DNA of 64,000 nt, from positions 973 through 64,972 of the forward strand of contig JAUVZJ010000005.1 of assembly GCA_030602585.1 (NCBI GenBank). Direction: 5' to 3'. Numbering within the stretch: the stretch's first letter is position 1; the number at the start of each line of letters is the position of its first letter. Both the position numbers and the translations under genes were made by a program. Source of the DNA: Candidatus Methanophagales archaeon. Its GTDB lineage: Archaea; Halobacteriota; Syntropharchaeia; Alkanophagales; Methanospirareceae. The notes beneath the pieces are model-generated. The model made no database searches. It was not told the DNA's origin and worked only from the letters and a program-made list of their open reading frames with translations. Shown here piece after piece: positions 3,165-62,445 of this stretch.

Positions 3165-4709
3165 ATGTCGACTAGAAAGAAAATTAGCACTGGTATAGCA
3201 ATATGCTTGGTACTGCTGAGCAGTATAATGTTGGGGTGCATAGAACAAGGCACTCAAAACTCAAGACAAACATTAACGATTGGATATGGCAAGGATACAA
3301 ATGTTGCTTCTCCGAAAATGATGGATTTCATGCCAGAGATGATGGTTCTGGAGAGGCTCATAGAATACAAAGATGGTGAAGTACTGCCAAGTCTGGCAAC
3401 TTCGTGGGACATCCAGGATAACAGCAAGACGATAGTTTTTCATTTTAAAAAGGACATTAAATTCTCGGATGGAAGCCCATTTACTGCTGAAGATGTAAAA
3501 TTTACATTCGATAGGCTGAAAGCACTGAAATATTACCATTGGACTGAAGTTGATCGAATAAAAAGTGTAGAAGTGATTGATCCACATACGATAGCTTTTC
3601 ATTACGAGGATGGGAAAGAAGGATACATTGCATTGACTGCTTTTGGGGAATATCATTGCAGTATTATGAGTCCCGTATCGGTTGAACCAAAGGGAGATGT
3701 CAAAGAAAAAATCGTGAATCCCATCGGAACTGGTCCTTGGAAGGTAGACGAGTATGTAAAAGATCAGTACACGATATTTGTGCGGAACGAGATTTATCAT
3801 GGCGAAAAACCAAAATTGGATAAGATTATTGTTAAAGTTATACCAGATGCCGAGACAAGGGTCTTGGCTCTCAGATCGGGCGATGTGGATATGATTGTTG
3901 ACTATTACCATGGTGGATCCAGCTATACTCCTAGAAATTTGTTAGAGCCATTGAAAAGCGAAGGATTCAATGTAATCAAAAATGAGATGCCGATGACCAC
4001 GATAATTAAGTTCAATTACAAAAAAGAGCCGTGGAACGATGTGAGAGTTAGAAAAGCCGTAAACTATGCAATCGAGAAGGATGAGGTTTCGGCACTCTTC
4101 GATAACTGGGTGAATCCGGCAAGACACGGATTGTATAGTGAACAAGGACCCTCCATAAAAGAGGTAAAGGTAGAAGCATATACCAACGATATAAATAAAG
4201 CAAAGACCTTACTTAAGAATGCAGGCTATGAGGAATTGAAAGCAGACCTCGTATTGCAGGGCGAAAATCCCGATGAGGTTAAGCTTTGCGAACTTATACA
4301 GGCACAACTCAAAAAAATTGGCATTCAGGTGAAGCTGAGCGTATTGGAGGGTGGTGCATACAGCGAAAGAAGGAATAAAGGAGATTATGATCTTATGGTA
4401 TATTATATTGGCGGTCCCGAAAGGCGCAGCTACACGAGAACGGACGGCAGGTTTAATCCAAACGCTCCTGAGTTTGGGTACGGGGCATACGATGATCCTG
4501 AGTTGTCAGATGTCCTTGAGAAGGCTGTATCATCTTTCGATGGCAAGGAGCGTCAAGAGGAATTCAAACAGTTTTACCAACTGCTCCACGAGAAGGCAGG
4601 TGTCGTTCCACTCTACTATGATGCAGTGTTTATTGTAGCAGATAAGAAGGTGAAAGGGATCAAATATGTAAGCTCAGAGCCTTGCTTTAGCGGGGTGTGG
4701 ATAGAATGA
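3165..4709 (+). CDS. ABC transporter substrate-binding protein, family 5 (NikA/DppA/OppA-like), lipoprotein
   Basis: Signal peptide with archaeal-type lipobox LLSSIMLGC. Family-5 solute-binding-protein fold motifs (LATSWD, KFSDGSPFTAEDVKFTF). It sits upstream of nikBC-like permeases. Confidence 0.8.
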   Translation: MSTRKKISTGIAICLVLLSSIMLGCIEQGTQNSRQTLTIGYGKDTNVASPKMMDFMPEMMVLERLIEYKDGEVLPSLATSWDIQDNSKTIVFHFKKDIKFSDGSPFTAEDVKFTFDRLKALKYYHWTEVDRIKSVEVIDPHTIAFHYEDGKEGYIALTAFGEYHCSIMSPVSVEPKGDVKEKIVNPIGTGPWKVDEYVKDQYTIFVRNEIYHGEKPKLDKIIVKVIPDAETRVLALRSGDVDMIVDYYHGGSSYTPRNLLEPLKSEGFNVIKNEMPMTTIIKFNYKKEPWNDVRVRKAVNYAIEKDEVSALFDNWVNPARHGLYSEQGPSIKEVKVEAYTNDINKAKTLLKNAGYEELKADLVLQGENPDEVKLCELIQAQLKKIGIQVKLSVLEGGAYSERRNKGDYDLMVYYIGGPERRSYTRTDGRFNPNAPEFGYGAYDDPELSDVLEKAVSSFDGKERQEEFKQFYQLLHEKAGVVPLYYDAVFIVADKKVKGIKYVSSEPCFSGVWIE

Positions 4710-22578: not shown

Positions 22579-23952
22579 ATGAAGGAAAAAAGAGAAAAAT
22601 GGAAAGGATTGATGCTACCGTCTTTGTTCGTGCTGTTAGCGACTGCTGCTTTACTTGCGTGGACGGTTACGGCGGTGCAGGGAGCGGAAGTAGAGAGCGT
22701 GACGAGGTATGCTCCGTCTGGTCCCGCTCCGGAGGCGGAGTTTGACGTGACGTTAAGGATTAACGGTGAACTTCCTTTAGTCGTTGGTATTGTTGAGACG
22801 ATTCCGAGTGGGTTTAGCTTTGTGAGCACAACGCATCCGGCGGACAATTACAGTGTCTCAGGGCAGATGATTGCTTTTGCGGTGATAAACGAAAAGGAGA
22901 TAAAATATAAAGTGATAGCGCCTCCTTCTGGTGAAGGCACTTTCACAGGGAAATGGATAGACATGCTAAGCGAGAAAGAAGGGAACATAGCAGATACTAC
23001 AGTCATAGTCGGTGGTGGAGGTGCGGGCACACAAGAAGAAGAAGTTACACCTACACCAACACCAACGCCAGCAGTTCCTACAGTAACGAAAGCAAGCAGG
23101 GTCGTTCCGGTGATGGAAGCGGAAAAAGAAGCAGCGATGGTTTTCGAGGACATGGACGTTTCAATGATTACGCTGAAAGCGGATAAAAATGTGAACGATG
23201 TGAAGGTTGAGGTCGAGCGAATAGAGAGAACTCCGGACATACCTGAGCCTTCGGGCGTAGCATACACTTATCTCGACATGAATGTGGAAAATACGGCAGG
23301 TGCGAAAATAGAAGGCAGAGTTGAGTTCAAAGTAATGAAATCGTGGCTCGTGGATAACAATATTGACGAGGCAACGGTCAAGCTGAACAGATACGATGAA
23401 AACGAAGGATGGATGGCGCTTCCAACTACAAAGGTCGGTGAGGATGATGAGGGCTTTGTTTATTTCGAAGCAGAAACGCCTGGATTTTCTACGTTCGCAG
23501 TAACCGGTGAGGAGAAAGTGGAAACGGCGTACGTGAGGCTCGATACAATTGCAACTGTAGGAGTTGGAGAACCGCTGGTTGTAACCGGAACCACTAACAG
23601 AAAGGAAGGGTTTCCAATCGTTATCTCGGTTAAGGGACCAACGGAGCTTGCACCTCAGACCGTTAAAGTAGAAAAAGGTACGTTCAACGCAATGTTTGAC
23701 ACAACAGGTGCAATAGGAGGAATGTACACGGTAAAGGTAGATGATGGAGATGGACATACGGATGAAACGACGGTGGAAATTGTAACAGCGGTACCAACGT
23801 CAAGTCCAACGCCAGCATTAGCGTCTGAGGTGCCGGGCTTTGAAGTTACCCTACCAGCACTTTATTTGATACTCGTGGTTTTTTTCGTATCGGTAGCGCT
23901 GATAATAGGGTATGTGTTTGGAATGAGAAGGAAAGGAGGTAATGCGGAATGA
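22579..23952 (+). CDS. secreted cell-surface protein with PT-rich linker and PGF-CTERM archaeosortase signal
   Basis: Signal peptide, TPTPTPTPAVPTVT linker, and a C-terminal SPTPALASEVPGFEVTLPALYLILVVFFVSVALIIGYVFGMRRKG. Confidence 0.7.
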   Translation: MKEKREKWKGLMLPSLFVLLATAALLAWTVTAVQGAEVESVTRYAPSGPAPEAEFDVTLRINGELPLVVGIVETIPSGFSFVSTTHPADNYSVSGQMIAFAVINEKEIKYKVIAPPSGEGTFTGKWIDMLSEKEGNIADTTVIVGGGGAGTQEEEVTPTPTPTPAVPTVTKASRVVPVMEAEKEAAMVFEDMDVSMITLKADKNVNDVKVEVERIERTPDIPEPSGVAYTYLDMNVENTAGAKIEGRVEFKVMKSWLVDNNIDEATVKLNRYDENEGWMALPTTKVGEDDEGFVYFEAETPGFSTFAVTGEEKVETAYVRLDTIATVGVGEPLVVTGTTNRKEGFPIVISVKGPTELAPQTVKVEKGTFNAMFDTTGAIGGMYTVKVDDGDGHTDETTVEIVTAVPTSSPTPALASEVPGFEVTLPALYLILVVFFVSVALIIGYVFGMRRKGGNAE

Positions 23953-43494: not shown

Positions 43495-44295
43495 ATGAAA
43501 CTAAAAGTAAAAGAGGTAGAGTTCAGCTATGCAAGTGTGCCTATACTCAAGGATATATGTATAGAGCTTGCCGCATCGGAGATGTTAGGCGTGGTGGGTC
43601 CAAATGGCGCAGGGAAATCTACGCTGATCAGATGTATAGACAGGATTTTAAAGCCTCAGCGCGGAATCATACTGCTGGATGAGCGTGATATAAAAGATAT
43701 GCGTCTAATGGAACTCGCCAAAAAAATAGGGTATATCCCACAAAGCACTTCTCAGATCTTTCCTGCTACGGTCTTCGATACCGTTCTCATGGGCAGACGT
43801 CCTCATATTGGGTGGCGAAGCAGCGAAAAAGATACTGAAATGGTTTTAGAGATGCTGCAAATGCTGAACATCGAAGAGTTCGCCATGCGGGACATTAACG
43901 AACTCAGTGGTGGTCAACAGCAGAAAGTGTTTATTGCACGCGCACTCACGCAAGAGCCTGATGTCCTTTTGTTAGACGAGCCCACTTCTAACCTTGACAT
44001 AAAACACCAGCTTGAAGTAATGGACATCATAAAAAACATCGTGATAGAAAAGCAAATCTCGGCGATTATGGCTATCCATGACTTGAATTTAGCTTCAAGA
44101 TACGCCGATAGGATACTAATGATGAATAGCGGTAAGATTTTTGCCGCAGGCAACCCTGTTTCTGTCCTTACACCGGCTAATATAAAATGGGTTTATGGTG
44201 TGGAGGCTGAGGTGAACAATAACAACGGAAGACCGTATATCGTGCCTATAAGACCTGTAAGAAAAATGGAGGTAGAAATGGGGTGTGAGGTGTGA
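43495..44295 (+). CDS. btuD: BtuD/FecE-family ABC ATPase
   Basis: Walker A GPNGAGKST, signature LSGGQQQK, Walker B LLLDEPTSNLD. Confidence 0.8.
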   Translation: MKLKVKEVEFSYASVPILKDICIELAASEMLGVVGPNGAGKSTLIRCIDRILKPQRGIILLDERDIKDMRLMELAKKIGYIPQSTSQIFPATVFDTVLMGRRPHIGWRSSEKDTEMVLEMLQMLNIEEFAMRDINELSGGQQQKVFIARALTQEPDVLLLDEPTSNLDIKHQLEVMDIIKNIVIEKQISAIMAIHDLNLASRYADRILMMNSGKIFAAGNPVSVLTPANIKWVYGVEAEVNNNNGRPYIVPIRPVRKMEVEMGCEV

Positions 44296-44298
44296 GGT

Positions 44299-44412
44299 GT
44301 GAGTGGGATAAAGAGGTTTGAGGATTTGAAGGTGTGGCAGAAGAGCCATGAACTTGTGCTCGAAGTTTATAAAGTTACATAGCAATTTCCAAATGAAGAA
44401 AAGTTTGGATAA
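44299..44412 (+). pseudogene. degenerate four-helix-bundle (TIGR02436-like) gene remnant
   Basis: (GTG) SGIKRFEDLKVWQKSHELVLEVYKVT then an in-frame TAG, then QFPNEEKFG and further stops. Flanked by (GGTGTGA)3 and cctcaaacctc repeats. Confidence 0.55.
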
Positions 44413-44550
44413 GTGAAGAAATAGGAAGAATGTTAAATGGACTAATAAAATCACTCTCAAACCGAAAACGTGAGGAGGTGAAGACGTGAGGTGTGAGAAT
44501 CAGAAGGCAGGACTCTGGCTCCTCAAACCTCACCACTCAAACCTAAAAAA

Positions 44551-45429
44551 ATGAGACAAATAGCATTTTATGGCAAAGGAGGCGTTGGAAAATCCACAGT
44601 AAGCTCAAACATCGCGGCGGCATTGGCTGAGCATGGGGTCGCCGTGATGATGATTGGCTGCGATCCAAAGCACGACTGCACGAGGAACTTGCGAGGCGAT
44701 GCTGAGATACCAACTATCCTTGACGTATCACGTGATAAAGGTATAGAGCGGTTGGGTCTTGAAGGGCTGGTAGAAGGAAATAAAATCGAGCTGGATGAAG
44801 TCATCTACAAAGGTTACAGGGGTGTTTACTGTGCAGAGTGTGGAGGCCCAAGACCGGGTGTTGGATGCGCAGGTAGAGGAGTTATTGTTGCGATAGATTT
44901 ACTCAAGAGGCTGAATGCCTTCGAAGAACTAAAGCCGGACGTGGTGATATACGACGTGCCGGGAGATGTAGTATGTGGTGGTTTTGCGATGCCCCTGCGG
45001 AGAGGTTTGGCAGACGAGGTCTATATTGTAACATCAGTGGATTATCTTGCTCTTTACGCTGCAAACAACATTTGCAAAGGTATCAGCGAGTTCGCAACCA
45101 AAGGAGGGTCTCCATTAGGCGGTATTGTCTATAATGTTAGAGGCATGCTTGACGATGAGGCTGTCGTCCACGACTTCGCAGAAAAGGTCAAGTCGCAAGT
45201 TATTGGGCACGTCCCTAACGCACATCAGATCGCAGAAGCTGAGATTGCGGGTAATACAGTGATTGAATATGACCCCGATAGCGATATTGCCGATTTGTTC
45301 CGGGAGTTAGCCCTGGGAATCTACACTAACACGCAGACTTCAGTTCCTGAGCCATTACCACCGGAAGAGATGACGAGAATAGGTCAGGTAATCAGGAAGA
45401 GGACAAAAGAGAAGTGGCAGCAGCGATAA
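44551..45429 (+). CDS. NifH/BchL/CfbC-family Fe-S ATPase (nitrogenase iron protein-like)
   Basis: P-loop [15 protein letters not shown], and both cluster cysteines ([23 protein letters not shown]). There is no adjacent NifD-like partner. Confidence 0.75.
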
Positions 45430-45448
45430 GGATAAAAGTATTTGTATA

Positions 45449-45487
45449 GTCATGATGCATGATGCATGATGCATGATACAAGATACA
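45449..45487. repeat. (CATGATG)4 tandem repeat plus left arm of the inverted repeat CAAGATACAGG flanking the four-helix-bundle gene
   Basis: catgatgcatgatgcatgatgcatgatacaagatacagg. The right arm at 45874-45900 reads cctgtatcttgcatcctgtatcttg (two units). Confidence 0.7.
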
Positions 45488-45492
45488 GGAGA

Positions 45493-45873
45493 ATGAGGGC
45501 ATTTCAGACATATAAGGATTTGGAAATATATCAGTTAAGTCATGATTTGGCAATTGAAATTCATAAGGTAAGCCTTAGCTTGCCAAAATTCGAGTTATAC
45601 GAAGAAGGGAGCCAACTGAGGAGATCTGCTAAGGCTATTCCTGTGAATATCGTTGAGGGATTTGGTCGCCGCCGATACAAAAATGATTTTATCCGATTTC
45701 TTACATTTGCTTTGGCATCATGCGATGAAACAAAAGAGCATCTTAAAATTTTGTATGAGACAGAGGCACTCAATGATAACGATATTTTTGATAGCTTTAT
45801 CTTGAGATATGAAGAATTAGGACGAAAAATCCACAATTTCATTAAAGCTGTGGAATCTGGTCATAAATCATAA
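45493..45873 (+). CDS. four-helix-bundle protein (TIGR02436, 23S rRNA IVS protein-like)
   Basis: [25 protein letters not shown]...IPVNIVEG matches the family consensus. ORF track 45466 starts within the flanking repeat. The stop abuts the right inverted repeat. Confidence 0.65.
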
Positions 45874-45929
45874 TCCTGTATCTTGCATCCTGTATCTTGA
45901 AACTTGACAGCTAAACAAATACAAGTTAC

Positions 45930-46151: not shown

Positions 46152-46226
46152 TGGGGTTGCTGAGATTTGAACTCAGGTCTCGGCGTCCCGAACGCCGAAG
46201 GATAGACCAAGCTACCCTACAACCCC
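46152..46226 (-). tRNA. tRNA-Pro (anticodon CGG), no encoded CCA
   Basis: Manual fold of the reverse complement GGGGTTGTAGGGTAGCTTGGTCTATCCTTCGGCGTTCGGGACGCCGAGACCTGAGTTCAAATCTCAGCAACCCCA gives a 7-bp acceptor, D arm, anticodon loop TTCGGGA, T arm CTGAG/TTCAAAT/CTCAG. Confidence 0.8.
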
Positions 46227-47755: not shown

Positions 47756-47834
47756 CTTTTCGCTTTCGCCTTTGCCTTCACCCTTCGCCTTTGAACATTT
47801 GAAGATACCTTTTTATAAAGGTTGTGAATGGAAT

Positions 47835-56738: not shown

Positions 56739-57608
56739 TCACTTATTTACCCTGAACCCCTCCGTCAATTTTAAAAATTTAAGTAACATTTCTCGTGAAA
56801 ACGTTGGTCCACGCAATAAACCCTCCGCTCCTTCCTCAAGCTTAAATATCAAGGACTGCCGCTTCTTTGAATATCCCATCTCTATTATCCCCTTCTCTTC
56901 CAACTCTCCCAGAGGAGTCTGTATAGACTCTGGACTGACCTCGATGCCAAATTTACGGTATATTTCTTCTTTTATATCCCTCACACTCATCGGCTTATCC
57001 ATAATGAGTCCCAAAATGATTAAATCTATGTTCTCCCTGAGCAATGAAATGATATCAACATGCTTTCCTTCCAGTCCACGTTCCAATTTCTTTGTAGCGC
57101 TCTGAAGTTTCTTATTCCTCTCCTCTAACTCTTTTAGCTTCTTTTCGCTTTCTTTTTCTTTTGCCCGCTCCTCTACCACCTCCCGAATATATTGCCCCAG
57201 CGTATCAAATAGAGCAGCCGGGTTACCTTCCTTCCTGATATATCTGTTCGCCCCTTTATTTAACGCCTCCATTGCCACCTTCTCTTCTCCTTTGCCGGTG
57301 AAGATAATAAAAGGAATGTTATTCCCTTTCTTCCTCAGCTCTTCCAGAAATTCCAGTCCATTCATTCCCGGCATCTTGTAATCAGAAACAACGATGTCAA
57401 AAGTTTCACGTTCCAGTTTTTCCAACCCAAGCTCCGCGGATAATACCGGCGTAATTTCAAAATTACTATGCCCTCTCCGTTTCAGAAACAATCTTGTTAT
57501 CTCAAGAGCCCCCTTCTCATCTTCCACATGCAAAACCCTTATCGGTCCAGGCATCGAGTTTGAATCCTCGTGCTGAACATCATTTATCATTGCTCCTTTT
57601 ATAACCAC
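56739..57608 (-). CDS. response regulator: CheY-like receiver plus coiled-coil plus C-terminal winged-helix-like domain
   Basis: The receiver has D..DYKMPGMNG..FTGKGEEK residues. The C-terminus (ILGLIMDKPMSVRDIKEEIYRKFG...LEEKGII) resembles a PadR/HalX-type wHTH. Confidence 0.65.
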   Translation of the reverse strand: MVIKGAMINDVQHEDSNSMPGPIRVLHVEDEKGALEITRLFLKRRGHSNFEITPVLSAELGLEKLERETFDIVVSDYKMPGMNGLEFLEELRKKGNNIPFIIFTGKGEEKVAMEALNKGANRYIRKEGNPAALFDTLGQYIREVVEERAKEKESEKKLKELEERNKKLQSATKKLERGLEGKHVDIISLLRENIDLIILGLIMDKPMSVRDIKEEIYRKFGIEVSPESIQTPLGELEEKGIIEMGYSKKRQSLIFKLEEGAEGLLRGPTFSREMLLKFLKLTEGFRVNK

Positions 57609-57635
57609 AGATTTTCACAAGAGAACAATTGAAGA

Positions 57636-57690
57636 TGCAAGATACAAGATGCAAGTCAAACCTGTATCCTGTATCCAGCATCTTCTTCTT
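57636..57690. repeat. imperfect hairpin built from CAAGATACA(A/G)G units, the same unit that flanks the four-helix-bundle gene
   Basis: gaagatgcaagatacaagatgcaag tcaaa cctgtatcctgtatccagcatcttc. Confidence 0.6.
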
Positions 57691-57795: not shown

Positions 57796-58254
57796 TTAGC
57801 AATTTTTTTGATTCCCTTTTTCTACCGCCGCATCACGCAAAGTTATTCCAATATCTAATAATTCCTCTGCACTCACGTCTCCCATCTCGTCCATCGCTGT
57901 CCTCAGTGCCACATCCATCTCGTCCTCCTCGTCCTCCTCCTCTCTCAAGCTGTATATCAAATCGTCCTTGTCCTCTCCTTTCTCGTCCTTTTCGTAATCT
58001 TCCCATTCCTCTCCCTCTTCTTCGGGTTCCTCTTCTACTACCTCCTCCACTCCTTTTTGTAACCACCACTGCTCTACTTTTTCTTTTTCCTTGTCGGAAT
58101 CATCGAATATTTCTGTTTCTTCTTCTACTGCTTCTTCTGTATCCGTGCCCTTCTCCTCTTCCGGAGCCGATGGCTGTGGCGGTGGCGGGGGTGAAATATC
58201 CTTATCCTGTTCCTCACCCTCACTCTCCGACCCATTCTCTTTTAAAGAATCCAT
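57796..58254 (-). CDS. highly acidic (Glu-rich) hypothetical protein
   Basis: 152 aa, more than 35% E/D. Confidence 0.35.
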   Translation of the reverse strand: MDSLKENGSESEGEEQDKDISPPPPPQPSAPEEEKGTDTEEAVEEETEIFDDSDKEKEKVEQWWLQKGVEEVVEEEPEEEGEEWEDYEKDEKGEDKDDLIYSLREEEDEEDEMDVALRTAMDEMGDVSAEELLDIGITLRDAAVEKGNQKNC

Positions 58255-59876: not shown

Positions 59877-61664
59877 TTACGACACACCCTCGCTTTCCAT
59901 CTTGGATAATACGGCGAAGAGATCGTAGAAGCCCCTAACCCCGGAATCGTGTATTTTCTTCAATATCCTCGCCCTCTTCTCCAGTATCTTATACATCTTT
60001 CGCACGTCACTCGACGGAATTCCTTTTTTCGGTGCTATTCTATGCTCCAGCATATACGAATTCATGTTTCCGACGAATTCGAAGGTGTCATTTGTGGGAT
60101 TCCACCTGAAAGTTTCGATAAAAGAGAAAGTTTCAGTAGAGGCGTCATATCCTACTATTTCACTTACACTCGTTACTCTTCTTAGCATTCTACCCTCTGG
60201 ACCTCGCACTGCATTTTGCATGATAACGAAATTTAAGTTGTCAATATACGTCTTAGGGACGTTTATGGGGTCACCGGTAATCCTTTGAATGAGCTTCTCG
60301 ACTGTTGCGGCATGGAAAGTGGACATGGCAGGATGTCCGGTCTGCATCCCTTGAAATACAATAAGTCCTTCCTCTCCCCTTATCTCACCCACGATTATCT
60401 CGTTTGGACGCTGTCTCAAAGAAGCTTTTAAGAGGTCGAACATTTCTACTCCCGCTCCTTCTCCTTCTTTCTTACCCTTATTGGGTCTCGTAATTTCTCT
60501 TATCCAGTTATGATGTGGGACCTGGAGTTCAGGAGTCTCCTCGATGGAAACTATCTTCGACATTGGTGGAATGAAAGTGGTAATAGCGTTCATAGTCGTT
60601 GTTTTTCCCGATGCGGTCTCACCAACGATGAAAACATTCATTCCTTCATAAATAGCAATCCAGAAATACGCCGCCATTATGTAATCGAAAGTGCCAAATT
60701 CTATAAGTTCAAAGATGCTATAAGGAGTTTCGCTGAATTTCCTTATAGTAACGTTGGAGCCTTTCTTCGATATGTCTTTCCCATATACGATGTTTATCCT
60801 TGAGCCATCGGGTAATACGGAATCCAGGATAGGAACACGGTAAGTTAGTGGCTTTCCTATCTTCTCAGAAAGTTTCATGACGAAGTCGTCTAAATCCTCT
60901 TCATTTGCAAACGTTACCGGTGCTTTCAACGATTCAAATATCTTATGCTCTATGAATATGTTCCCTAATCCAGAGCAGGATACATCCTCGATGTTTGGGT
61001 CGCGAAGAAAAGGCTGCAAAACGCCTAATTCCACTCTATCCCTTATCATAAGGTATTTTATTGCTTTAAGCTCAAAAGGAGTTACAGAGATTTTTTCATC
61101 ATCATTTCCATTCCAGAATTTAGGTATAAACTTCAGTAATTTACCATTACCATTACCATTACCATTCCACTTTCCATTTCCACTCACGGCATTTGTCTCT
61201 GTTTTTACTTCGCACACCTCATCTATGCACTCCAGAAGAATCGCCTTTTTCTCTTCATTATCTTTCGGCTGATCGTAATTAGCCACCAATCCCGCTAATT
61301 TTCTCTCTACCACGTCTATCAATCTATCATAGTTATTGAACATGTTAGGCTCAATAGGAATGTAAAAGTCCCTCGCATCCTCTTTATCAGGGCATATATG
61401 CACGGCTACGTCTTTATTTACGGGATAGATTAAATTCGGACGCTTTATAGTTTTCATCTTCGTTGTAAGTTTCGGATAGAATTTTGGAGTTCCAATAGTA
61501 TCCAGAGGAAGCATGTGCAAATACTGGAGAACGTGTTTGCTTTCCTTAACGTGTTCCTTACCCTCTTGTGACAGTATCTGGTATAACCCACACTGCGACA
61601 GGTCACACGAGTCTTCATTATTTTCGACTTTATTATGCTCAAAAGGTAGGTCTGTACTTGGCAT
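59877..61664 (-). CDS. flaI: FlaI/GspE/VirB11-family secretion ATPase
   Basis: Walker A VGETASGKTT, Asp box, Walker B and His box. Carries an (NG)n insert GNGKWNGNGNGNGK. Confidence 0.8.
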   Translation of the reverse strand: MPSTDLPFEHNKVENNEDSCDLSQCGLYQILSQEGKEHVKESKHVLQYLHMLPLDTIGTPKFYPKLTTKMKTIKRPNLIYPVNKDVAVHICPDKEDARDFYIPIEPNMFNNYDRLIDVVERKLAGLVANYDQPKDNEEKKAILLECIDEVCEVKTETNAVSGNGKWNGNGNGNGKLLKFIPKFWNGNDDEKISVTPFELKAIKYLMIRDRVELGVLQPFLRDPNIEDVSCSGLGNIFIEHKIFESLKAPVTFANEEDLDDFVMKLSEKIGKPLTYRVPILDSVLPDGSRINIVYGKDISKKGSNVTIRKFSETPYSIFELIEFGTFDYIMAAYFWIAIYEGMNVFIVGETASGKTTTMNAITTFIPPMSKIVSIEETPELQVPHHNWIREITRPNKGKKEGEGAGVEMFDLLKASLRQRPNEIIVGEIRGEEGLIVFQGMQTGHPAMSTFHAATVEKLIQRITGDPINVPKTYIDNLNFVIMQNAVRGPEGRMLRRVTSVSEIVGYDASTETFSFIETFRWNPTNDTFEFVGNMNSYMLEHRIAPKKGIPSSDVRKMYKILEKRARILKKIHDSGVRGFYDLFAVLSKMESEGVS

Positions 61665-61695
61665 ATTTCATTCAGTTACTCCCTTTTGCTTATGC

Positions 61696-62445
61696 TTATG
61701 CTTTTGCTTTGGTAACAGGAATTATTCGCAAGCCAAATGAAGGCTCGACTTCAAATGCGATTATGTTTCCCGTTGTCCTCTGCGCGCCTCTTATCTTTGC
61801 AACCTCCATTGTTCTTATCAGTCTATCTCCCACCTCTTCTTTCTTTAAGCTGAGATGTGCGTCACATATAGACCTCACGCGGGTCAGCACTTCCTCACCG
61901 AAAGCAAACGTGTGAGCAGTTATCAAGAGTGTCTTGCCGGAATCGCATACTCTCACACAACCAGAGAAGAAACGGAGAATATCTTTATCCGGGGCGTCAG
62001 CGACGAAAACAGTAAGCGAATCTATGAGTATTACGTCCGCATCCTTCGTCTTTATGTCATTAAGGATGTAATCGAGAATAGAAATCTCTTCAGTCCATTC
62101 TACGCCTTCCAAATGGACGGGATAAATCTTAAGGTTTCCAAACACGAAATAATCTGATATGTCCAGGGATAAACTGTCCATTTGTCTCAACAAGCTTTTT
62201 ATGGTGTTTTCCGTGGTATAGGTAGCAAAGCGAAAGCCCTGCTGCAGTCCTCCCCACAGTAATTGTTGCGTTAAAACACTTTTCCCGGTATCGTTTGCAC
62301 CTTCGATAAGAGTAAGAGAGCCGGCGGGTATTCCACCTCCCATCTTCTTGTCCATCTCTGTGTTCCCGCTGGTAAGTACGTCTTTACTGCCATAAACAGA
62401 AGTAATTCTTATTTCTTGATCGTCCGCATCCTTTTCTTCGCTCAT
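61696..62445 (-). CDS. flaH: FlaH-like KaiC/RecA-fold ATPase
   Basis: 249 aa with P-loop GANDTGKSVL and a KaiC-like single domain. Position upstream of flaI-flaJ. Confidence 0.6.
   Translation of the reverse strand: MSEEKDADDQEIRITSVYGSKDVLTSGNTEMDKKMGGGIPAGSLTLIEGANDTGKSVLTQQLLWGGLQQGFRFATYTTENTIKSLLRQMDSLSLDISDYFVFGNLKIYPVHLEGVEWTEEISILDYILNDIKTKDADVILIDSLTVFVADAPDKDILRFFSGCVRVCDSGKTLLITAHTFAFGEEVLTRVRSICDAHLSLKKEEVGDRLIRTMEVAKIRGAQRTTGNIIAFEVEPSFGLRIIPVTKAKA

Follow-up and report, generated by a model that had tools for sequence, protein, structure and literature searches.

The stretch analysed here, called the window, is a 64,000-nt piece of a Candidatus Methanophagales archaeon genome (contig JAUVZJ010000005.1, positions 973 to 64,972). 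It contains a small gene, FHB1, which encodes a four-helix-bundle (FHB) protein and is located between two inverted arrays of tandem 7-nt repeats (heptamers). The gene and its two arms are together called a cassette. The window has one cassette that is intact, a second that is gutted and a hairpin without a gene. The intact cassette lies between a NifH-like gene and rpoK, and not within helix 9, 25 or 45 of a 23S rRNA. A first-pass annotation, made from the letters alone, had described FHB1 as an intact TIGR02436-like gene (45493-45873) tightly bracketed by repeats and had suggested that such genes ride on small hairpin-ended cassettes. The profile scores and the arrays on both sides confirmed the bracketing. 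The density of arrays beside the gene, the matching between arms of the same cassette and the predicted closing-stem fold support the suggestion.

FHB1 matches Pfam PF05635 (2e-28, 99.1 bits, curated cut-off 33.8) and TIGR02436 (5.5e-30, 103.8 bits, curated cut-off 24), in both cases above the cut-off, and has a sequence match to the structure PDB 2GSC (XCC0516; E = 7.7e-7). The AlphaFold model of the monomer (predicted local distance difference test 91.4) has helices at residues 11-27, 32-58, 63-89 and 96-121. It superimposes on 2GSC with a template modelling (TM) score of 0.85-0.95 and a root-mean-square deviation of about 1.1-1.2 Å, and on 2RLD (BT_0352) with a TM score of 0.71-0.85. FHB1 is clearly a member of the PF05635/TIGR02436 family (S23p, the 23S rRNA intervening sequence, or IVS, protein), which was originally discovered within such rRNA insertions, and a four-helix up-down bundle. 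At the positions of the published motif GxxRxxxSxxxNxxE (PMC3936711), the protein reads Q41..R44..A48..N52..E55, so that R, N and E are kept while G and S are replaced. The family alignment (A1) shows no variation at Q41, E55 or R60 and almost none at R43. An exact database look-up of the 126-aa product returned no record because gene callers begin the open reading frame (ORF) upstream (134-135 aa).

The left arm reads CATGATG three times, then CATGATA, CAAGATA and CAGG, and is a single degenerate array. Tandem Repeats Finder (TRF) reports (CATGATG) x3.9 at 45451-45477, with period 7 and 100% matches. The four CATGATG units and the following CAAGATACAGG (at 45479) listed in the first-pass annotation are therefore parts of one arm. 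Its last heptamer merges into a GGAG Shine-Dalgarno-like motif (45488-45491) ahead of the FHB1 ATG. The right arm starts 1 nt past the stop codon and includes the two copies of CCTGTATCTTG already reported there, at 45875 and 45889. The cassette measures 449 nt, with FHB1 as the sole gene between the arms. The inverted pair 45458-45496 / 45868-45906 (I1; 39 nt, 77% complementary) is the top inverted repeat of the 40-50 kb region. With at most one mismatch, CAAGATACAGG has six matches in the window against 0.93 expected, a number reached in 0/100 shuffles. Three of them are extra matches, the hairpin at 57.6 kb being among these. Across all 64 kb, strong period-7 arrays number just three (44275, 45446 and 57628), and block shuffles gave none. 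The heptamer arrays around FHB1 are well past chance. In the minimum-energy RNA fold of the whole intact cassette, the arms pair as a closing stem (z = -3.55), and this predicted stem sequesters the GGAG motif. FHB1 is co-directional with the upstream NifH-like gene. An Rfam scan of 43.5-47 kb at permissive E-values returned only a tRNA-Pro and two sub-threshold snoRNA-like matches, and no known RNA family covered the arrays.

The same arrangement was found around most relatives of FHB1. About 100 relatives were examined overall. The statistics are based on 80 loci from one scan of species-representative genomes, which came from anaerobic methanotrophic archaea of group 1 (ANME-1), Thermoplasmata, Planctomycetota, Omnitrophota, Chitinophagaceae, Desulfobacterales, Verrucomicrobiota and others. 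Periodicity was scored by the unique best period among 4-12, and segments 600 nt away served as controls. Period 7 was the unique best upstream of the gene in 70/78 loci (controls 4/72) and downstream in 63/78 (controls 7/70). At least one side carried a period-7 array in 71 of the 76 loci with full flanks, and both sides did in 39/76. The density of strong arrays was 2.6 per kb beside the gene against 0.11 per kb in the rest of the same loci, a 23-fold difference. A typical array has 4-5 units, the downstream one begins a median of 3 nt past the stop codon, and cassettes are about 440-640 nt long (median 497). All ten ANME-1 places fetched by protein identity, which represent three different insertion sites, have inverted heptamer arrays, with CARGATR arrays upstream and YATCYTG arrays downstream in every copy. 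The first-pass annotation had considered that other copies of the family might lack repeats and that the repeats might be ubiquitous and unrelated to these genes. The opposite was found, in 10/10 ANME-1 places and 71/76 loci.

Upstream arms match their own partners rather than those of other loci. The mean score against the reverse complement of the downstream arm was 31 for own partners and 18 for cross-partners (p = 3e-14), and the consensus pairs of individual loci covary (CCGGATR/CCRGATG, TGGGATG/TGGGATA, CAGGCYG/CARGCTA, CCAGTTA/CCGGTTA). Most arrays have the core C-n-n-G-W-T-R in common (5.7 bits, column-permuted null 2.69 +/- 0.16). Their polarity is fixed, upstream arrays being forward in 40/49 cases and downstream arrays reverse in 43/48. 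A home-made hidden Markov model added ten divergent family genes in these loci, on the same strand in every case. Divergent paralogues each have their own unrelated heptamer, inverted on both sides (ATTAGTG, GGTTATT, CAATTAA, ACGTTCT, GACAGAA and others). A search of IMG/VR yielded no close relative, and a profile scan picked up a single distant copy, located on a viral contig and likewise with inverted arms of its own heptamer. The heptamers of the paralogues and of the viral copy therefore indicate that the heptamer type belongs to the cassette and not to the host. Heptamer similarity also correlates with protein similarity (Mantel r = 0.22, 0/2000 permutations). In L032, L053 and L073, an in-frame stop splits the family gene into two ORFs, and these are pseudogenes or sequencing errors.

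Orientation is strongly biased. With co-directional host genes on its two sides, the FHB gene had the sense orientation 65 times and was never antisense (p = 5e-20). It was found between divergent genes in 13 cases and between convergent genes in seven, and never antisense to both neighbours. Gaps to the neighbouring genes are about 40 nt.

In ANME-1, FHB copies that are 88-93% identical occupy unrelated sites, namely between a radical-SAM gene and a methyltransferase-mcrBGA cluster, between TatD and radical-SAM genes, and inside a che operon between a cheX-like gene and cheB. The pairwise ratio of nonsynonymous to synonymous substitution rates (dN/dS) among these copies is about 0.1, and the FHB protein is therefore under purifying selection. 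The window and L011, a species representative whose FHB1 protein is 100% identical, differ at 3/381 ORF positions. Their left arrays differ by a 4-nt indel and substitutions, and their right arrays by one 7-nt unit. In L181, the ORF is identical to that of the window and the array has one extra 14-nt unit. The arrays evolve much faster than the FHB ORF. Some database gene calls (P0060, P0093, P0109) read through a heptamer array and end in tails with a 7-residue periodicity, e.g., TRIKDLARTRIKGQGSRIKD, and a 374-aa call (P0206) fuses a PF05635 fragment to a NifH-like protein. These tails and the fused call appear to be annotation artefacts caused by cassettes.

The second cassette of the window is decayed. 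The first-pass annotation had proposed a degenerate copy at 44299-44412. The copy, its in-frame stops and the adjacent (GGTGTGA)3 are real, but the borders had to be corrected to about 44282-44544. An N-terminal remnant with in-frame stops (44311-44406, tblastn E = 0.004) is followed by a C-terminal remnant (44415-44462), whose reading frame extends to about 44484, and the middle of the gene is deleted. At the right end, a direct array copy (44470-44497: GTGAGGA GGTGAAGAC GTGAGGT GTGAG) precedes an inverted array (44521-44544: CCTCAAA CCTCACC ACTCAAA CCT) which stops 6 nt short of the NifH-like gene's start codon. The local hairpin at this end is not significant alone (z about -1.9). The same applies to the inverted pair gaggtttgagg / cctcaaacctc, which had been proposed as the boundary of this copy. 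It has four matches against 1.2 expected, and 3/100 shuffles reach four. Its left member lies in the gene remnant (codons R-F-E-D), and the informative partners are the heptamer arrays. On the left, the ABC-transporter ATPase gene (ORF 43495-44295) ends within the array, its stop codon (44293-44295) being the TGA of the second GGTGTGA unit. The C-terminus of the ATPase differs from that in L011, which we read as a host protein end rewritten by the decayed cassette.

Comparison with relatives clarifies the history of this junction. L091 has an intact 124-aa counterpart of FHB2 (1812-2186) at the same position before its NifH-like gene. In L097, a more distant syntenic relative with the same ABC permease, ABC ATPase and NifH-like genes, the ATPase stop abuts the NifH-like ATG, and this junction is an empty site of the decayed FHB2 cassette. 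A comparison with a related genome lacking the insertion had been proposed earlier; it thus yielded an empty site for FHB2 and none for the intact FHB1. In L011, two ABC-2 type transporter genes replace the decayed cassette (L011:160-1960 versus window 44296-44550), and the homology with the window ends exactly at its left heptamer array. L091 also has, downstream of its NifH-like gene (3165-3255), an element without a gene that is of the FHB2 heptamer type, gtttagtgtgag ... aaacctcaccactcaaacatcaaacct. It ends just ahead of the next gene's ATG, as does the array upstream of the NifH-like gene.

The NifH-like gene was correctly placed between two such elements in the first-pass annotation, since the upstream one is a decayed cassette which is intact in L091 and absent from L097. 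The gene itself is host cargo outside either element. It scores above the cut-off for NF009701 (453 bits) and under the cut-off of 402 for the CfbC model (339). It is probably an F430-pathway reductase in a very rearrangement-prone neighbourhood. Its orthologues in ANME-1 relatives (loci L171-L180) have four other neighbourhoods, all without cassettes. The neighbours there are CfbB-like, CbiX, GlutR and siroheme-synthase genes, or NDK and Lon on either side, and in the window the gene comes after an Mg-chelatase-like gene and an ABC transporter. A composite transposon carrying the NifH-like gene was not adopted, the coincident breakpoints being its only evidence.

The third element has the FHB1 heptamer type and no gene. 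On the minus strand it reads GAAGATG CTGGATA CAGGATA CAGG, a loop, and TTGCATC TTGTATC TTGCATC TTC. This is the cassette polarity, with the same CARGATR / YATCYTG heptamers as in the intact cassette. The hairpin is located between two minus-strand genes, for an acidic protein (57796-58254) and a response regulator (56739-57608). The predicted RNA fold is stronger on the minus strand (-32.1 kcal/mol, z = -6.1) than on the plus strand (-26.6 kcal/mol, 5.5 weaker). Of the solo arrays in the fetched loci, 48% have the same heptamer type as the FHB arrays in their own locus, and the figure for other loci is 10%. In L019 (739-987), five consecutive heptamer arrays of TATCCTG / CATCATG types, each ending in caagga, form a cluster of solo arrays about 2 kb upstream of the family gene. 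The features of the window are listed in Table 1.

Table 1. Positions of the cassettes, their parts and the enclosed host gene in the window
Feature	Position	Strand	Basis
Decayed cassette	~44282-44544	+	heptamer arrays and gene remnants
Left arm of decayed cassette, (GGTGTGA) x3.1	44282-44303	+	TRF
FHB2 pseudogene, second divergent four-helix-bundle type	44311-44484	+	tblastn, counterpart in L091
Right end of decayed cassette: direct array, spacer, inverted array	44470-44544	+	sequence
NifH-like (CfbC-type) reductase gene	44551-45429	+	PF00142, 4.9e-98
Left arm of intact cassette, ~5.6 tandem heptamers, type CAWGATR	45451-45489	+	TRF, period-7 scan
FHB1, intact four-helix-bundle gene, 126 aa	45493-45873	+	PF05635 and TIGR02436 profile matches
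Right arm of intact cassette, TCCTGTA TCTTGCA TCCTGTA TCTTG	45874-45899	+	inverse of left-arm heptamers
Gene-less hairpin, FHB1 heptamer type	57631-57685	-	sequence, TRF

The presence of the same packaging around most relatives in bacteria and archaea points to a widespread, barely described selfish element. We consider it reasonably probable, with no great assurance, that each element is an IVS-type selfish gene cassette which has settled in operon spacers rather than in rRNA. The unit would consist of a promoter-less ORF of about 125 codons for an S23p/Avd-like four-helix-bundle protein, with its own ribosome-binding site and two inverted arrays of about 4-5 heptamers. Sitting in sense orientation in a host intergenic spacer, it would be transcribed by host read-through. 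In the read-through transcript, the arrays could pair in several registers and form a long closing stem with the ORF looped out. The stem may be processed in vivo, by analogy with the rRNA IVS, whose stem is cut by RNase III. Array length would shift by slippage in steps of 7 or 14 nt. Recognition of its own heptamer arrays by the FHB protein is proposed because Avd, the only characterised relative, binds structured RNA. As the core and the polarity exceed the needs of pairing and the heptamers are cassette-specific, the FHB protein is the most economical candidate for the recognition factor, and most likely reads the arrays of its own cassette. The distribution of cassettes suggests that they spread to new intergenic sites and across lineages and then decay. 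Recombination or gene conversion at pre-existing arrays of like type is our best guess for the way in which they move.

A number of observations weigh against an IVS-type selfish cassette. Movement itself was not seen, and the cassettes have no associated recombinase, transposase or reverse transcriptase. Inspection by eye of the outer borders in the window, L001, L004, L005 and L016 revealed no target-site duplication. Among the ANME-1 loci compared, no clean empty site of the intact FHB1 cassette was found. The look-up by rpoK returned only the same arrangement (L181), the NifH-like orthologues (79-89% identity) lie in the four other neighbourhoods and are not comparable, and of the methyltransferase orthologues one site was filled (L182) and one non-syntenic (L183). 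The decayed FHB2 site is the only one with a syntenic empty counterpart (L097). The FHB2-type layout itself differs, with a direct array copy past the stop codon, as also seen in L091 (2187-2275). The fetched loci contain 34 solo arrays distant from any FHB gene. With a predicted isoelectric point of 6.5, FHB1 is not basic and in this departs from published descriptions of Avd. As for pairing, complementarity between the arms reaches only about 77-80%, with transversions as frequent as transitions among the mismatches. A perfect stem is therefore not the conserved feature. G:U outnumbers A:C by a small margin (124 versus 97), and cross-partner controls show the same bias. The RNAduplex energies favour the sense over the antisense duplex in 55/78 loci, a difference that is possibly compositional, and controls already reach about -31 to -36 kcal/mol. 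Finally, co-orientation with each neighbour (84-90%) is modestly above the 79% baseline of ordinary pairs in the same loci; the informative orientation statistic is therefore the 65:0 ratio.

A serious rival, to which we give a clearly smaller though real chance, is that the cassette is a mobile element acting at the DNA level. The arrays would then be terminal inverted repeats composed of several binding sites for a protein, in the manner of Tn7 or Mu ends, or single-stranded DNA hairpins formed at replication. A multimer of the four-helix-bundle protein would bind the arrays and draw the two ends together, host replication or repair enzymes would cut and join, and gene-less inverted arrays would be non-autonomous derivatives similar to MITEs (miniature inverted-repeat transposable elements). 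Imperfect complementarity with many transversions and no clear G:U signature would suit such binding sites, and a heptamer core and polarity that are constant across phyla are not needed by base-pairing alone. The specificity of heptamers to their cassettes inside one genome, the agreement of solo arrays with the FHB arrays of their own locus, the rearrangement breakpoints between window and L011 at the left array, and the roughly 70 inverted heptamer pairs per Xanthomonas genome (PMC4692102) are in line with it as well. The FHB protein, nevertheless, has no known or evident catalytic site, and target-site duplications were not seen in the five ANME-1 loci. A complete sense bias would be unexpected for a DNA transposon unless antisense insertions were strongly counter-selected, and the documented precedent, the rRNA IVS, works on RNA. 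It is improbable, in our view, that the genes are not mobile and encode a host-beneficial small regulator or RNA-binding protein, recruited repeatedly into operons, with repeats that tune its expression by autoregulation or in a phase-variation-like manner. Near-identical copies adjoin functionally unrelated genes (mcr, che, TatD, cfbC-like, rpoK), one locus can hold several divergent copies, and pseudogenes and gene-less remnants occur. The phyletic distribution is patchy, archaea and bacteria share a heptamer type, and copies exist on a viral contig and within rRNA. A host function would, on the other hand, account for the strong purifying selection, for the differing repeat numbers of near-identical strains (also in Coxiella), for the Shine-Dalgarno motif sequestered by the predicted stem and for same-site insertions kept across several ANME-1 species (L001, L012, L014, L182).

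Two further explanations have very little probability. The arrays could be generic intergenic hairpins (terminators, REP-like (repetitive extragenic palindromic) sequences or G-quadruplex repeats) between which the genes lie by chance. Solo arrays in the window and in the fetched loci, and the abundant heptamer arrays reported without a gene link in Xanthomonas, Nostoc and Beggiatoaceae, would be expected under coincidence. Such a reading is largely refuted by the 23-fold density beside the gene, the period-7 signal of both flanks against the controls, the short distance of downstream arrays from the stop codon and the matching of own arms, as well as by a polarity that is fixed relative to the gene and by paralogues of one genome differing in heptamers. 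Slighter still is the chance that FHB1 is the Avd accessory protein of a diversity-generating retroelement (DGR). The model resembles 4DWL and 8UBE (TM 0.73-0.83), and PF05635 is the commonest family beside DGR reverse transcriptases (PMC10053308). Yet no reverse transcriptase is found within 5 kb, where all neighbours were identified as something else. Nor does the region have a template/variable repeat pair: the longest of the direct repeats in 40-50 kb measure 21-29 nt at 64-86% identity. Moreover, FHB1 has 12-16% sequence identity to Avd and a pI (isoelectric point) too low for a basic protein. A DGR identity of the locus was rejected for want of a reverse transcriptase and of a template/variable repeat pair.

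Among known systems, the IVS of the 23S rRNA in Coxiella and Leptospira is similar to the cassette in protein family, size, sense ORF and terminal inverted-repeat stem. The Coxiella IVS is 428-444 nt long, with a 28-bp terminal stem and an ORF sense to the rRNA (PMC4990558). It has 2-3 GACAGAT heptamers ahead of the ORF, whose number varies between strains, and the first repeat is where RNase III cleaves (PMC4990558). Both the IVS and the cassette have tandem heptamers immediately upstream, in strain-variable copy number, and an ORF prone to decay. The cassettes here differ in lying between archaeal protein-coding genes and in having heptamer arrays as both arms, and the GACAGAT heptamer has only the G-A-T-R part of the C-n-n-G-W-T-R core. 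A strict 23S rRNA IVS identity fails, as the cassettes are outside rRNA. Avd forms a pentamer and resembles S23 proteins, and stem-loops that it binds have been described (10.1101/2023.10.23.563531). It shares the four-helix-bundle fold with FHB1, and its binding of structured RNA is the sole experimentally characterised activity in the wider family. The cassette here differs in lacking a reverse transcriptase and template/variable repeats, beside the low identity and non-basic character of FHB1.

Heptameric repeats have been described in bacteria, e.g., (GGGANTN)n in Xanthomonas and GGGGAYT in Nostoc (PMC4692102), and TAACTGA in Beggiatoaceae and cyanobacteria (PMC4679880). Like the arrays here, these and the short tandemly repeated repetitive (STRR) sequences of Calothrix are intergenic tandem units of 7 nt, mostly in about four copies. 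They form frequent convergent inverted pairs, mostly between co-oriented genes, and their length is strain-variable. The complement of GGGAATC, when rotated, is CCCGATT, which fits the C-n-n-G-A-T core. These repeats differ in being mostly gene-less, and the published reading is that of G-quadruplex or translational signals. The texts of both papers contain no mention of 'S23' or 'helix bundle'. MITEs and REP sequences or bacterial interspersed mosaic elements (REP/BIME) are also small intergenic inverted-repeat elements whose gene-less copies share ends with gene-carrying ones, a pattern of autonomous and non-autonomous forms. Neither a transposase nor a RAYT accompanies the elements here, target-site duplications were not observed, and their ends are 7-nt tandem arrays in place of unique terminal repeats. 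The FHB1 cassette does not qualify as a transposon or a MITE, with no transposase gene and no target-site duplication evident at the borders inspected by eye. Integron cassettes come with an integrase, a shared attI platform and one attC site each, at the 3' end. They resemble the present cassettes as compact, promoter-less, co-directional single-ORF units bounded by imperfect inverted repeats, and differ from them since here two arms and dispersed sites occur without an integrase.

Earlier publications already describe the family itself, its members in rRNA IVSs, its resemblance to Avd, its occurrence in cas operons, where 23S_rRNA_IVP genes are wedged (PMC3936711), and the heptameric repeats. 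The literature search found no paper stating a general rule of FHB genes with inverted heptamers, a shared core and fixed polarity; subscription journals were thinly covered, and a prior description is possible. As a more tentative extension, the FHB gene with its inverted arrays may represent the autonomous version of a selfish class that is very widespread in bacteria and archaea. The protein would be the sequence-specific reader of its own arrays, gene-less arrays and hairpins would be non-autonomous offspring, rRNA IVSs a special insertion context, and the heptameric repeat excess long noted in bacterial genomes largely the footprint of the class.

Such a class would tie together the role of the ORF in rRNA IVSs (S23p), the 'four helix bundle protein' genes wedged into operons and the excess of 7-nt repeats in prokaryotes. 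Thousands of such genes lie in operons, cas, che and mcr operons among them, and have been taken there for functional partners. The conserved rule (about 125 codons, inverted arrays of about 4-5 heptamers, C-n-n-G-W-T-R, sense orientation) would make this uncharacterised family a testable system of protein-nucleic-acid recognition and would place Avd in an evolutionary context. Knowledge of the arrays is also of practical use, as they account for certain annotation artefacts, e.g., extended C-termini and calls fused to adjacent genes, and flag rearrangement-prone spots beside key methane-metabolism genes of ANME-1.

Within about 5 kb of FHB1, the genes are those for an Mg-chelatase-like protein, an ABC permease, an ABC ATPase, the NifH-like protein, rpoK, tRNA-Pro, rpoN, S9, L13, L18e and Ftr. 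The window comes from a methane-oxidising archaeon of ANME-1 (Methanophagales). The closest proteins bear the names Methanophagales or ANME-1, and the flanking genes are archaeal (rpoK, rpoN, S9, L13, tRNA-Pro, Ftr). The tRNA-Pro (CGG) gene is on the minus strand between rpoK and rpoN (46152-46226), about 250 nt from the right arm. A weak period-7 tract of 5.4 TTTCGCC-like copies (47758-47792, 74% matches, pyrimidine-rich) is found between the Ftr and L18e genes, with no nearby inverted partner. The window also contains tandem repeats of period 6, namely ACACCA x4 (23047-23070), TTACCA x7 (61141-61182) and CTTTTG x4.7 (61683-61710), which seem unlinked to the heptamer arrays.

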